A stretch of DNA of 40,997 nucleotides from a virus. The stretch lies in the UHGV virus genome UHGV-0384088, one strand, 5' to 3'. The notes under the pieces are model-generated. The model was not told where the DNA came from. It saw nothing but the letters and a program-made list of their open reading frames with translations, and did no database searches. Position 1 is the first letter of the stretch. Each line of letters begins with the position of its first letter. Positions 9,624 to 12,182 of the stretch are shown here, one piece after another. Position numbers and translations under genes: made by a program.

Positions 9624-10073
9624 ATGACCCCTAAAAAGACATTATCACAAAAAGAAGCTGATGATTTACTTAACATGATTAAAAGAACTCTTTCCGAATC
9701 TGTAGAATTTCCATCAAAAGGCAACTCTTTAGAATTTGATTTAATTGGAGATACTAAAAAAGAATTATTCACAGCAAAAATATATCGTGGTAGAATAAAT
9801 TCATTAAAATACGAAATGGGCGCTAGAATTAAAAAGGATGGAATTCTTCTATTGGAATTACATGTCAATCCAGGGAAAGTTCATCCAAACCCTGATGGCT
9901 CCAAAATTATAGGTTCTCATTGGCACATATATACTGAAGAATACGGAAGACAATTTGCTATTCCAGCCGAAGATATTCTATCTGATAATTTTGTAGAAAA
10001 TACTATATTGTTTTTGAAAAAATTTAATGTAATTAAACAGCCCAATATTTCTTTTCAATTAGAACTTGTATAA
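9624..10073 (+). CDS. hypothetical protein (149 aa), first gene of cargo cassette
   Basis: ORF track; RBS AAAGGAA; no recognised domain. Confidence 0.5.
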   Translation: MTPKKTLSQKEADDLLNMIKRTLSESVEFPSKGNSLEFDLIGDTKKELFTAKIYRGRINSLKYEMGARIKKDGILLLELHVNPGKVHPNPDGSKIIGSHWHIYTEEYGRQFAIPAEDILSDNFVENTILFLKKFNVIKQPNISFQLELV

Positions 10074-10096
10074 CAAAATGTGAAGGAGGTGTTTTT

Positions 10097-10855
10097 ATGG
10101 ATATTCAGCGCTATATAGATGATTATGCTAATTGGCTCAGAAATGAGATTACATTTTCCAAAGTTGGTCAGTATTATGAAATAAATACACCATTTTTAGA
10201 TACAGATGGCGATTATTTTCAATTCTATGTAAAGCAAGAGAATGATGAGCTTTTATTCACAGATGATGGATATACATTAAATTCTCTTGAAATGACAGGA
10301 TTTAAACTAACGAAAAATCGAAAGCAACAACTTAATCAAATTTTATCTCAATTTGGAGTTCAACTAGAAAAAAACGAATTAACGCTACGGGCTCCGGCTC
10401 CTGAATTTGCACAAAGAAAGCATGCATTCACACAATGCCTTATTCGTGTAACAGATATGTACATGACCTCTAGAACGAAGGTTTCTTCCTTTTTTCTGGA
10501 TGACATACAAGATTTCTTTTTAGAAAATGATATTTATTGTATGGAAAATGTTTCATTTACTGGGAAATCTGGTTTCTCCCATAACTACGACTTTGCTATA
10601 CAGCGGTCTAAGCGAAAGCCAGAACGACTATGCCTTGCTATAAATAATCCGAACAAGACCGCAATGAGTAATGCTCTTTTTGCTTGGAACGATACTAAAC
10701 CATATAGAAGACATGATAGCCAATTAGTTGTACTGCTAAACGATTCAAATTCCATAAGCAAAGGAGTGGAAGATGGATTTTCTAACTACAGCGTGAATAC
10801 TATCCGTTGGAGTGAAAGAACAAAAAACGAAAATTTAGAAATACTGACAGCTTAG
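10097..10855 (+). CDS. hypothetical protein (252 aa), second gene of cargo cassette
   Basis: Strong RBS GAAGGAGGTG; 23-nt gap from upstream gene; family not recognised with confidence. Confidence 0.5.
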   Translation: MDIQRYIDDYANWLRNEITFSKVGQYYEINTPFLDTDGDYFQFYVKQENDELLFTDDGYTLNSLEMTGFKLTKNRKQQLNQILSQFGVQLEKNELTLRAPAPEFAQRKHAFTQCLIRVTDMYMTSRTKVSSFFLDDIQDFFLENDIYCMENVSFTGKSGFSHNYDFAIQRSKRKPERLCLAINNPNKTAMSNALFAWNDTKPYRRHDSQLVVLLNDSNSISKGVEDGFSNYSVNTIRWSERTKNENLEILTA

Positions 10856-10934
10856 ATGATTTGTTTTGTATCGATATAACCGCTTCGGCGTTTATATAGA
10901 GTGGTGTGAGGTACGGGTAAGTTAAAGGAGAAAA

Positions 10935-12182
10935 GTGACTATGGGATTAAAAGATGTTTTTAATATCGGGAAAATAGCAAAGGAAAACGCTGGATTAAAA
11001 GAATTAATGTCTCCAGAATTTCAAAACGCTTCCGTCCTGAATTCAAAAGTTGCCGAATTGGAAGCCAAAAAAGAACGGCTTGAAAAGGAAATTGACAAAC
11101 GCACTTCCAAAATTGACGCTTTGAAGAAGGAGGCGGTATTTTTCGAAGATGCAATCACGTTTCAGGAGTTTGGTCTATATACGCCACGATATGATTTTGT
11201 TACGTCAGAAGAATATAAAGAAGAATTGGATCGTATTCGTGATGCGCAGAAAAAATTGATAAAAAATGATAAAGCTATTATCGGCGCTACAACTTGGACA
11301 GTAAATGGAAGCAAAAGTAAAGGTAATAAGATGATTGCGGATATGAAAAAATTGTTTTTAAGGGCGTTCAATAGCGATTGCGAAGATGTAATAAGTAAGG
11401 TGAAGTACAATAATTTTGATATGTCTCTTAAAAAAATCCGTCAATCTGCGAACTCTATTGAAAAACTCGGGAAATCAATGTCATTACAGATTACTCAAAA
11501 ATATATAGATTGGAAAGAGGAAGAGCTTACATTAGCGTTTGAATATCAACAAAAGAAGCAGGAAGAGAAAGAAGCTCAAAAAGCTGCAAGAGCAGAAATG
11601 CGAGAAGCTGCGCGACTACAAAAAGAAATTGAAGCTCAACGTAAGAAGATAGAAAAAGAACAAACTCACTACCAGACAGCTTACGAAAAACTTCTTAAGC
11701 AATTAGAAGAAGATCCAGATAACTCAGATCTTCTTGCTAAAAAATCCGAATTGGAAAATCAGCTCAATGACATCGATAGGGCTATTAAAGATATCGACTA
11801 TAGAGAAGCAAACCAACGCGCCGGATACGTTTACATAATTTCAAATATAGGAGCCTTTGGAGAAAACGTCTATAAGATTGGAATGACTAGGCGCTTAGAT
11901 CCTCAAGACCGTGTTGACGAGCTAGGTGATGCATCTGTTCCGTTTAATTTTGATGTGCATGCCATGATCTTCTCTGATGATGCACCAGCATTGGAAACAG
12001 CTCTTCATAAAGCGTTTGAAGATCGTAAGCTAAATATGGTTAACACGAGAAGAGAATTCTTCAATGTAACACTTGATGAGATAAAAGAGGTTGTAAAGGA
12101 AAACTTTGATAAGACTGTAGAATTTGTTGATGTACCAGACGCGGAACAATTTAGAGTAAGTCAAAAAATGAAACGAAGATAA
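10935..12182 (+). CDS. DUF4041-like coiled-coil N-region + T5orf172 (MUG113, GIY-YIG-like) C-terminal domain protein
   Basis: 415 aa; long K/E-rich coiled coil (residues about 30-290) then GYVYIISNIGAFGENVYKIGMTRRLDPQDRVDELGDASVPFNFDVHAMIFSDDAPALETALHKAFEDRKLNMVNTRREFF, matching the T5orf172 signature (YVYxL..., KIGxT, R..EL, E..LH..F, REFF). Confidence 0.7.
   Translation: MTMGLKDVFNIGKIAKENAGLKELMSPEFQNASVLNSKVAELEAKKERLEKEIDKRTSKIDALKKEAVFFEDAITFQEFGLYTPRYDFVTSEEYKEELDRIRDAQKKLIKNDKAIIGATTWTVNGSKSKGNKMIADMKKLFLRAFNSDCEDVISKVKYNNFDMSLKKIRQSANSIEKLGKSMSLQITQKYIDWKEEELTLAFEYQQKKQEEKEAQKAARAEMREAARLQKEIEAQRKKIEKEQTHYQTAYEKLLKQLEEDPDNSDLLAKKSELENQLNDIDRAIKDIDYREANQRAGYVYIISNIGAFGENVYKIGMTRRLDPQDRVDELGDASVPFNFDVHAMIFSDDAPALETALHKAFEDRKLNMVNTRREFFNVTLDEIKEVVKENFDKTVEFVDVPDAEQFRVSQKMKRR

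Follow-up and report, generated by a model that had tools for sequence, protein, structure and literature searches.

A probable pair of independent defence-type cargo modules between the immunity and integrase genes of a temperate phage of Mediterraneibacter gnavus

Three co-oriented genes lie between the immunity genes and the integrase of a temperate phage of Mediterraneibacter (Ruminococcus) gnavus (UHGV virus genome UHGV-0384088; the window analysed is the whole stretch of 40,997 nt), and they raise the question whether they work as one system or belong to separate modules. An earlier note, made from the sequence alone, had taken them for a single uncharacterised exclusion or abortive-infection system. 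Our analysis shows a hotspot of defence cargo that contains a newly found member of an established family and an already known candidate. The former is gene 3, a SNIPE-family gene whose product has no transmembrane (TM) helix, and the latter is the pair PDC-M24, formed by genes 1 and 2.

The three genes and their surroundings

The layout of the locus is given in Table 1. The three ORFs were confirmed on the plus strand, with intergenic gaps of 23 and 79 nt, and the Pfam matches of the flanking genes bear out the location between cI/ImmA and a serine integrase. The strong ribosome-binding sites claimed for the genes were also recognized, as the Shine-Dalgarno sequences GAAAGGAA 5' of gene 1, GAAGGAGG 5' of gene 2 and AAAGGAG 5' of gene 3. 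The attP site lies close 3' of the integrase, near 13855, where homology to integrated prophages ends; in integrated sibling prophages the next genes after the integrase are the host cotJB/cotJA. A divergent promoter with 12/12 consensus (minus strand, 8668-8640) points away from the operon, in a scan whose total was not above shuffle expectation (25 sites vs 19±4 in shuffles); the same is true of the terminator scan (6 vs 3.7±2). A diversity-generating retroelement considered near 15.8-17.3 kb was rejected, as neither a Pfam RT match nor a template/variable repeat pair was found.

Table 1. Features of the region between the immunity genes and the integrase (positions in the window)
Feature	Position	Strand	Evidence or remark
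cI-like HTH repressor	8700..9128	+	Pfam HTH_3 4.9e-12; first gene of the co-oriented operon
ImmA/IrrE-type M78 metalloprotease	9129..9569	+	Pfam Peptidase_M78 2e-11
Gene 1, PDC-M24A, DUF6978, 149 aa	9624..10073	+	Pfam, PADLOC
Gene 2, PDC-M24B, DUF1828+DUF1829, 252 aa	10097..10855	+	Pfam, PADLOC
Conserved inter-cassette junction, 5' boundary of the SNIPE cassette	10873..10902		Contains the hairpin GATATAACCGC-TTCG-GCGTTTATATAG
Gene 3, SNIPE/PD-lambda-1 family nuclease, TM-less, 415 aa from GTG	10935..12182	+	PADLOC, Pfam
3' boundary of the SNIPE cassette	12192..12231		Overlaps a G+C-rich hairpin, 12201-12231
Large serine recombinase (integrase)	12376..13794	+	Pfam Resolvase, Recombinase, Zn_ribbon_recom

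Genes 1 and 2, said in the earlier note to have no recognisable domains, do have them. Gene 1 belongs to DUF6978 (Pfam, 1.3e-38) and matches the PADLOC model PDC-M24A (PDLC04536) over its full length (1.3e-70), and gene 2, composed of DUF1828 (8e-26) and DUF1829 (2e-30), matches PDC-M24B (PDLC04539), also over the full length (4.8e-95). PDC-M24 is one of 145 PADLOC candidates obtained by guilt-by-embedding, and its models were built on copies located inside BREX, DISARM or type I RM loci (Payne et al. 2024, 10.1101/2024.01.29.577857). A full-text literature search revealed no paper mentioning PDC-M24.

PDC-M24A contains a histidine cluster, H87, H99 and H101 with N89-P90-D91 (codons about 9882-9926). 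Across 87 diverse members H87 and H99 are invariant, while H101, N89, P90 and D91 are each kept in at least 90%. The best 150 of the 638 cluster representatives of the DUF6978 family are stand-alone proteins, without a domain fusion among them, and the structural model of PDC-M24A (pLDDT 70.5) gave no significant fold match. A distant DUF6978 protein was detected in uninduced S. aureus and decreases under ciprofloxacin, a pattern that fits expression during lysogeny.

In PDC-M24B, modelling predicts a type III secretion chaperone/YbjN-like fold for the N-terminal DUF1828 (about 10187-10450) and a PD-(D/E)xK restriction-endonuclease-like fold with an alpha-beta-beta-beta-alpha-beta core for the C-terminal DUF1829 (about 10562-10819). 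D165 is kept in 12/13 sequences and R177 is invariant, position +2 is L and not K, and E176 is variable (T in Lj965 and Javan249). Since the canonical (D/E)xK is absent and E176 is not kept in distant homologues, PDC-M24B may not be a nuclease. We also considered homology of PDC-M24A to the N-terminal domain of PDC-M24B and rejected it (hhalign probability 0.2%).

Gene 3 matches PADLOC PD-Lambda-1 (PDLC03976; 1.2e-156, protein 31-414 on profile 89-474 of 491) and phrog_1847 (6e-151). The coiled coil and the T5orf172 domain noticed earlier were both recovered: coiled-coil-type matches fall in the N-terminal part, followed by DUF4041 (PF13250, 6.2e-19, residues 139-194, about 11349-11516) and by a GIY-YIG/T5orf172 domain at about 11823-12101 (Pfam T5orf172 1.8e-19, MUG113 1.3e-19). 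The catalytic residues of the latter are conserved in the alignment. E354 (codon 11994-11996) aligns with the catalytic E414 of the E. coli protein and is invariant in 61 aligned sequences, together with Y300, K314-I-G316, R319/R320 and N367/N370. The sequence assigns gene 3 to the SNIPE/PD-lambda-1 family.

The true start of gene 3 is probably ATG 10941, giving 413 aa, and not GTG 10935, because database copies are annotated with 413/414 aa, homologues start with MG[LFI]xD and the spacing from the Shine-Dalgarno sequence to this ATG is better. Near-identical 413/414-aa copies number in the hundreds in M. gnavus. It may be mentioned here that PF13250 now bears the name 'SNIPE' in precomputed domain tables.

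Both parts of the locus thus match PADLOC models of anti-phage defence, which keeps the earlier proposal of a candidate defence module standing. The term uncharacterised no longer applies, with gene 3 in the SNIPE/PD-lambda-1 family and genes 1 and 2 already catalogued as PDC-M24.

Pairing and assortment of the modules

If genes 1-3 were one system, the T5orf172 protein would be its effector and genes 1 and 2 a sensor/regulator or a membrane anchor. Such a reading draws on the co-orientation and tight spacing of the genes and on the lack of a TM helix in the nuclease, which might therefore need a partner; the translations of PDC-M24A and PDC-M24B, however, contain no obvious long hydrophobic anchor when judged by eye. 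Gene neighbourhoods speak against it more strongly. PDC-M24A lies directly upstream of PDC-M24B in 45/47 informative B-anchored loci, and PDC-M24B directly downstream of PDC-M24A in 51/51 A-anchored loci (scanned with a narrower PDC-M24A alignment, the broader one being too diverse). In contrast, SNIPE is present in 2/38 B-anchored and 3/51 A-anchored PDC-M24 loci, and A/B in 1/77 SNIPE-anchored loci.

We compared the locus with sibling prophages, that is, near-identical M. gnavus prophages, most of them at the cotJA/B site. Among ten places with an identical SNIPE allele, nine have the order A-B-SNIPE, a recurrence that favours a single system, and one (L004) has SNIPE without A/B. SNIPE without PDC-M24A/B was found in 10/10 further sibling places, whereas in seven others (7/7) PDC-M24A-B occurs without SNIPE. 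The SNIPE alleles found without A/B are 96-100% identical, which on genomic grounds points to the autonomy of SNIPE as a single gene. The slot of some siblings holds other genes, namely a Bro-N/PDC-S13 gene and ORFs without assigned function; this agrees with the earlier view of dispensable cargo in a hotspot between immunity genes and integrase, and shows the slot to be variable.

Relative to siblings with either module, the SNIPE cassette breaks off sharply near 10.89 and 12.19 kb. In siblings with A-B only, homology stops at 10902 and restarts at 12192, and in siblings with SNIPE only it begins at 10873/10888. The hairpin at the 5' junction has no T-run, and the terminator scan made no call there; the hairpin at the 3' boundary was called minus-strand terminator-like, in a scan whose total is not above shuffle expectation.

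The assortment statistics and these discrete breakpoints largely refute one three-gene system, and in E. coli one gene suffices for PD-lambda-1 activity (Saxton et al., PMC13190303); we regard the single-system reading as highly improbable. Genes 1 and 2 form an essentially obligate pair and gene 3 assorts independently on its own cassette. Outside the present prophage lineage homologues of all three genes almost never occur together, which comes close to the complete lack of co-occurrence that the earlier note had said would speak against it. We conclude that two independent, dispensable cargo modules, the PDC-M24 candidate and a TM-less SNIPE member, are probably stacked in the immunity-integrase slot, so that an apparent new three-gene system is resolved into two modules, one of them a published defence family.

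The three-gene arrangement is nevertheless found on many M. gnavus contigs, and at one further locus (L063) a PDC-M24A-B pair is followed, 338 nt downstream, by a second, TM-bearing SNIPE allele, a juxtaposition that also favours a link between the genes. Given this recurrence, functional synergy between the two modules is possible.

Lactobacillus prophage Lj965 and Staphylococcus phage 37 carry the PDC-M24 pair by itself. In other phages it is located between cI/ImmA and tyrosine or serine integrases, and in some genomes near Dnd, type I RM, methyltransferase or TOTE genes. This distribution bears on whether the pair is anti-phage at all or represents a toxin-antitoxin (TA)/addiction module of prophages and mobile elements, or else plays an accessory part in the cI-ImmA lysogeny switch. 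Within prophages the pair comes after cI/ImmA in the same operon, and its tight or overlapping genes recall TA organisation. Its defence role is a prediction (10.1101/2024.01.29.577857), and DS-6B of HipAD, the one DUF1829 protein validated so far, has been proposed to be an antitoxin-like DNA-binding partner (PMC13092281). However, siblings that share the immunity and integrase genes can do without the pair, it accompanies varied repressor/integrase types, and it is also found outside prophages, without cI/ImmA, beside Dnd, RM and TOTE genes; its PADLOC models likewise come from copies within defence loci. Addiction and defence are, moreover, compatible, and we consider a role other than anti-phage unlikely.

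As a defence candidate, the PDC-M24 pair would be a two-component, probably nucleic-acid-directed module of defence or addiction type. PDC-M24B, with a chaperone-like ligand/protein-binding domain and a PD-(D/E)xK-fold domain, would work in complex with PDC-M24A and its putative metal-binding His cluster. To this candidate pair, now well-defined for validation, the present data add a first structural and co-occurrence description.

The N-terminus of gene 3 and its proposed action

PD-lambda-1 of E. coli reportedly came out of the 2022 screen of Vassallo and colleagues. SNIPE cleaves phage DNA during injection and protects directly, without abortive infection (Saxton et al., Nature 2026, PMC13190303), and the abortive-infection reading of gene 3 is at odds with these experiments on its family. 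In E. coli SNIPE, defence is lost upon E414A or deletion of DUF4041 (PMC13190303). The prototype and about 66% of its homologues have an N-terminal TM helix, which the prototype needs against self-cleavage: once the TM is deleted the E. coli protein is toxic, as host DNA is then cut (PMC13190303).

Gene 3 has no such hydrophobic segment: its maximal 19-residue Kyte-Doolittle value is 0.73, reached in the nuclease domain, vs 3.37 and 2.60 in the TM-bearing homologues from E. coli and a C. difficile phage, respectively. Since 34% of 474 SNIPE homologues have no TM (PMC13190303), this places gene 3 in a TM-less subclass and not outside the family. Its N-terminus consists of the motif MGLKDVF followed by the coiled coil. 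The corresponding consensus, MG[LFI]xD[IVT][FL], is kept in 49/60 distinct gut-virome homologues, and a TM helix takes its place in 9/60. We rejected N-terminal truncation, a frameshift or pseudogene status as an explanation for the shortness of gene 3, because its distance from gene 2 is no more than 79 nt, copies of 413/414 aa number in the hundreds and the motif is kept in the 49 homologues.

The hydrophobic moment of the gene 3 N-terminus (0.35) is reached by 15% of shuffles, and searches against Pfam and PDB profiles returned generic coiled-coil profiles only. A PspA/Vipp1-like membrane-binding helix, also considered here, was not supported by these searches: PspA_IM30 (PF04012) is absent among the Pfam matches listed for 21 N-terminal regions, and no such match was found in the PDB.

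It can therefore be asked whether gene 3, with neither a TM nor a clearly amphipathic N-terminus, encodes a cytoplasmic nuclease that is auto-inhibited, for example by the coiled coil, and triggered after phage entry, to cut phage DNA or act as an abortive effector. Even the membrane-bound E. coli SNIPE has been described as auto-inhibited (PMC13190303), and a motif kept in 49/60 homologues points to a specific interaction more than to plain anchoring in lipid. On the other hand, equally close relatives exchange the motif for a TM helix, an argument for functional equivalence of the two N-termini. Many TM-less homologues have membrane-associating features (PMC13190303), and the N-terminus of gene 3 matches the profile types which that study lists for N-terminal regions; of these, UPF0242 and a reovirus coiled coil figure in its list for TM-less proteins. 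Conservation with the prototype is, in addition, strong in DUF4041 and the nuclease domain. A cytoplasmic enzyme is, in our judgement, unlikely.

For a nuclease acting at phage entry, we infer that the conserved N-terminus of gene 3 would replace the TM as the device that localises TM-less SNIPE and restrains it from cutting host DNA. DUF4041 would bind DNA, with the tape-measure protein of the incoming phage as a probable second partner in the prototype of E. coli, and would position the GIY-YIG nuclease to cut phage DNA on injection; a lysogen carrying SNIPE would then be protected without dying. Either module may have anti-phage activity in M. gnavus.

A bolder reading, which we hold only tentatively, is that PDC-M24 is a two-protein anti-phage system with a new mechanism, composed of a small His-cluster metalloprotein and a secretion-chaperone-like sensor with a degenerate PD-(D/E)xK domain, and that a TM-less SNIPE clade common in phages of gut Clostridia docks at the genome entry site in Gram-positive cells, or stays auto-inhibited, via MG[LFI]xD[IVT][FL] ... 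[ST]PE[MLF]Q without a membrane anchor. If this is true of TM-less SNIPE, its principle of self/non-self discrimination would reach beyond membrane tethering. The natural swaps described above (TM vs non-TM N-termini, with or without PDC-M24) bear on how SNIPE avoids self-cleavage without an anchor, and the prophage-borne TM-less allele is widespread (hundreds of contigs) in M. gnavus, an abundant disease-associated gut commensal.

Comparison with known systems

With regard to the PDC-M24 catalogue entry, genes 1 and 2 have the same components, adjacent, co-oriented and in A-then-B order, and nothing distinguishes them except the setting: here they are prophage cargo, whereas the catalogued copies are embedded in an RM, BREX or DISARM locus. 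DUF1829 is also present in DS-6B, part of the validated two-gene anti-phage system HipAD/DS-6 (DefensePredictor, PMC13092281), and is the only domain that DS-6B and PDC-M24B have in common. DS-6B has a HipA-like kinase as partner and an N-terminal DUF3037, while PDC-M24B has a DUF6978 partner and DUF1828. Compared with PD-(D/E)xK effectors such as HamA of Hachiman, Can2/Card1, NucC and type II restriction enzymes, the motif of PDC-M24B is incomplete, with R177 in place of the lysine, and a partner domain of the helicase, CARF or SAVED kind is lacking.

Gene 3 differs from E. coli SNIPE in lacking the N-terminal TM, in being shorter by ~85 residues at this end (413-415 vs 500 aa) and in being moderately identical beyond the nuclease domain (tblastn gives about 43% overall). 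Its host is a Gram-positive gut bacterium of the Clostridium class, without the ManYZ-dependent route of lambda entry found in E. coli. In other respects gene 3 resembles the prototype: DUF4041 is followed by a long helix, and a GIY-YIG/T5orf172 nuclease forms the C-terminal part; the catalytic Glu is kept, as is the entire GIY-YIG core, and gene 3 is carried as a single-gene cassette in a variable cargo slot of a prophage.

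Organization of the cargo region

The arrangement of three co-oriented ORFs between the immunity genes and the integrase, as described in the earlier note, was confirmed by coordinates, strand, intergenic gaps (23 nt between genes 1 and 2, 79 nt between genes 2 and 3) and the Shine-Dalgarno-like sequence found ahead of each gene. The start of gene 3 is most likely the ATG at 10941 (413 aa) rather than the GTG at 10935, because the database copies are 413/414 aa long and the homologues start with MG[LFI]xD; its AAAGGAG Shine-Dalgarno lies 10 nt ahead of this ATG, but 4 nt ahead of the GTG. 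A predicted minus-strand promoter at 8640–8668, with 12/12 matches to the sigma-70 consensus (TTGACA-17-TATAAT), points away from cI, toward a 61-aa HTH (cro-like) ORF at 8329..8514, and presumably drives early lytic transcription in the genetic switch.

Features of the cargo slot in the window and of related loci (L-numbers)
Feature	Position	Strand	Remarks
cI-like HTH gene	8700..9128		upstream of the three ORFs
ImmA/M78 protease gene	9129..9569		upstream of the three ORFs
Gene 1 (A)	9624..10073	+	ORF, 149 aa
Gene 2 (B)	10097..10855	+	ORF, 252 aa
SNIPE cassette, one edge	10873-10902		short shared junction containing a hairpin
Gene 3 (SNIPE)	10935..12182	+	ORF, 415 aa as called
SNIPE cassette, other edge	12201-12231		hairpin
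Large serine recombinase (int)	12376..13794		downstream of the three ORFs
Alternative slot gene	L024:6843-7334
Alternative slot gene	L024:7400-8293
Alternative slot gene	L004:5041-5934
Alternative slot gene	L028:7381-8889	-

Genes 2 and 3 have near-identical annotated copies in Mediterraneibacter ([Ruminococcus]) gnavus, and most integrated sibling prophages adjoin host cotJB/cotJA. Homology between the window and the integrated siblings ends at 13855 (counterpart about 8915 in L005), 61 nt past the int stop codon; therefore, the window represents an excised or circular phage form with attP nearby. A few siblings (L022, L027, L030) encode a 491-aa integrase variant and occupy a second integration site, beside M50 peptidase and dxr.

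Elsewhere in the window, a 113-aa ORF (15848–16189, minus strand) looks by eye like the C-terminal part of a reverse transcriptase and adjoins the gene of a DUF6273 protein (16217–17275, minus strand), which together suggest a decayed diversity-generating retroelement; the ORF had no Pfam match, and no pair of template and variable repeats was detected. Within the 791-aa Prophage_tail (endopeptidase tail) gene there is a 124-nt direct repeat (20786–20909 and 20978–21101; 74% identity, 192-nt spacing).

Two modules in one slot

With PADLOC profiles, gene 1 was assigned to PDC-M24A (1e-70), gene 2 to PDC-M24B (5e-95) and gene 3 to PD-Lambda-1 (1e-156); all three fall in PHROGs phage families of unknown function, and none had a match in NCBIfam. 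Genes 1 and 2, earlier held to have no recognisable domains, carry DUF6978 and DUF1828 plus DUF1829, respectively. The description of the set as uncharacterised does not stand either: genes 1 and 2 are an already catalogued candidate defence pair (PDC-M24), while gene 3 adds a member to a known family, PD-lambda-1, now renamed SNIPE and characterised (Saxton et al., Nature 2026, PMC13190303), whose authors have already described a subclass lacking the transmembrane (TM) helix.

Nor do the three genes behave as the single unit proposed earlier. Among siblings with near-identical integrases, most of them at the cotJA/B site, the order cI-ImmA-A-B-SNIPE-int was found in 9 places, SNIPE without A/B in 1 + 10 places (two locus sets), and A-B with no SNIPE, but with a 163-aa ORF and/or a Bro-N gene after it, in 7 places, all combinations of A-B and SNIPE being seen in close siblings. 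In nucleotide comparison, the match of A-B-only siblings to the window ends at 10902 and resumes at 12192, and that of SNIPE-only siblings starts at 10873/10888. These sharp breakpoints place SNIPE on its own cassette of about 1.3 kb. The hairpin at 10873–10899 (GATATAACCGC-TTCG-GCGTTTATATAG; TTCG loop, no T-run) sits exactly in the junction of about 30 nt common to all sibling cargo variants and may act as a linker in recombination, a site of RNA processing or an attenuator.

The wider collections gave the same picture. A was located immediately upstream of B on the same strand in 45 of 47 B-anchored loci, and B immediately downstream of A in 51/51 A-anchored loci. A SNIPE homologue was present in 2 of 38 B-anchored and 3 of 51 A-anchored loci, and A/B in one of 77 SNIPE-anchored loci; among the matches listed for the phage collection, no record was common to SNIPE and B homologues. 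Lactobacillus prophage Lj965 and Staphylococcus phage 37 carry the pair between immunity genes and int without SNIPE. Thus, A and B are an obligate two-gene module and SNIPE is a separate single-gene module, and their adjacency in the window reflects a common cargo hotspot.

The sole exceptions to the A-upstream-of-B rule were L053:6001-6753, with B and no detectable A, and L081:3431-4659, where A is located downstream of B on the opposite strand, in convergent orientation. In a sibling phage with a 92% identical B gene (L063:7094-8194; IMGVR_UViG_2846323532_000002), a different, TM-bearing SNIPE allele lies downstream of the A-B pair at a distance of about 338 nt; therefore, TM-bearing and TM-less alleles are exchanged at one slot.

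Other siblings carry in this slot a Bro-N protein matching the PADLOC candidate PDC-S13 (1e-117), or ORFs of 163, 297 and 502 aa for which neither Pfam nor PADLOC gave a match; these ORFs may be additional defence genes. Elsewhere among phages, the pair is located between cI/ImmA and a tyrosine or serine integrase. The earlier idea of defence cargo expressed in the lysogen at a hotspot was right in spirit, though a three-gene unit, an uncharacterised status and an abortive character are not supported.

The A-B pair

PDC-M24 belongs to a set of 145 "phage defence candidates", which were predicted from copies lying within BREX, DISARM or type I RM loci and are termed untested by their authors. 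Our literature search found no mention of PDC-M24, and DUF1828, DUF1829 and DUF6978 were mentioned only in passing, save for DUF1829 in DS-6B of the validated HipAD system.

The A family comprises 638 clusters at 50% identity; its best 150 matches are stand-alone proteins, mostly of about 150 aa, with no fusions listed among them. H87 and H99 do not vary across 87 diverse members, and N89, P90, D91 and H101 are at least 90% conserved; the resulting motif, H-x-N-P-D-G...G-x-H-[LW]-H-I-Y-x-E-G-Y-G, suggests a metal site. The structural model of A was moderate (pLDDT 70.5) and yielded no significant structural or profile match. Profile comparison showed no relationship between A and B. Q2FXA9, a distant DUF6978 protein, was detected by proteomics in uninduced MRSA/S. 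aureus and drops about 3- to 4-fold with ciprofloxacin (bioRxiv 10.64898/2026.05.15.725322), as expected of a prophage lysogenic-operon gene; indirectly, this is consistent with lysogenic-operon expression.

We count among the established points the modelled fold of B, a chaperone-like domain followed by a nuclease-fold domain. In B, D165 is almost fully and R177 fully conserved, distant phage homologues have a different residue in place of E176, and no (D/E)xK lysine was found; with its catalytic motif incomplete, B may plausibly be a nuclease.

We put the chances that the pair is defensive at about even. A and B would then form a complex, the chaperone-like domain of B sensing a ligand from phage or cell and the nuclease-fold domain of B binding or cutting nucleic acid, with A as a putative metal-dependent co-effector or regulator. 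The main rival explanation is a toxin-antitoxin/addiction module; in HipAD the DUF1829 protein is proposed as a DNA-binding, antitoxin-like partner. In 15 genome/virome A-B loci no phage immunity genes were recognisable; the genes around the pair there include some for defence (DndF/G, a type I restriction enzyme, methyltransferases, a TOTE-system primase, PbeA, mad3), some of mobile elements (Mob_Pre, serine recombinases) and some with housekeeping roles (e.g. smpB, RNase R), which lends moderate support to a defence or mobile-island lifestyle.

A SNIPE homologue without the TM helix

[quoted passage not shown] We aligned gene 3 with the E. coli phage PhiR26_1 protein annotated as PD-lambda-1 (500 aa) and gp42 of C. 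difficile phage CDMH1 (522 aa). The nuclease core is near-identical in all three. The glutamate at residue 414 of the E. coli protein aligns to E354 of gene 3, which, like the rest of the GIY-YIG core, is invariant in 61 homologues; the T5orf172 domain thus retains its catalytic residues.

The N-terminal TM helix of both phage proteins has no counterpart in gene 3, whose maximum 19-residue hydropathy is 0.73 versus 3.37 (PhiR26_1) and 2.60 (CDMH1). The TM is likewise missing in 49 of 60 distinct SNIPE ORFs from gut viral contigs, which have in common MG[LFI]xD[IVT][FL], then ...[ST]PE[MLF]Q and a coiled coil; a TM takes the place of this end in nine of the 60, which are equally close relatives. 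This shared motif, together with hundreds of 413/414-aa copies in databases, rules out an artefactually short N-terminus. A PspA-like helix at this end was not supported.

Gene 3 is probably expressed in the lysogen and would cut superinfecting siphovirus DNA at or near entry, with positioning and auto-inhibition provided by its N-terminal motif and coiled coil in place of the TM. Abortive infection, suggested earlier, is not supported; SNIPE protection is direct and non-abortive (PMC13190303). The novelty that remains is the validation of PDC-M24 and an account of how self-cleavage is avoided in a TM-less SNIPE.

The TM-less N-terminus fits the published view of this region as a swappable adaptor, with the TM missing in 34% of homologues (PMC13190303). 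N-terminal regions of the gene 3 type match, all below family thresholds, coiled-coil profiles of UPF0242, reovirus sigma-1, P22 tail needle and DivIC-like proteins; profiles of the same kinds are listed for N-terminal regions in the SNIPE paper, where UPF0242 and the reovirus protein stand in the TM-less list (PMC13190303).
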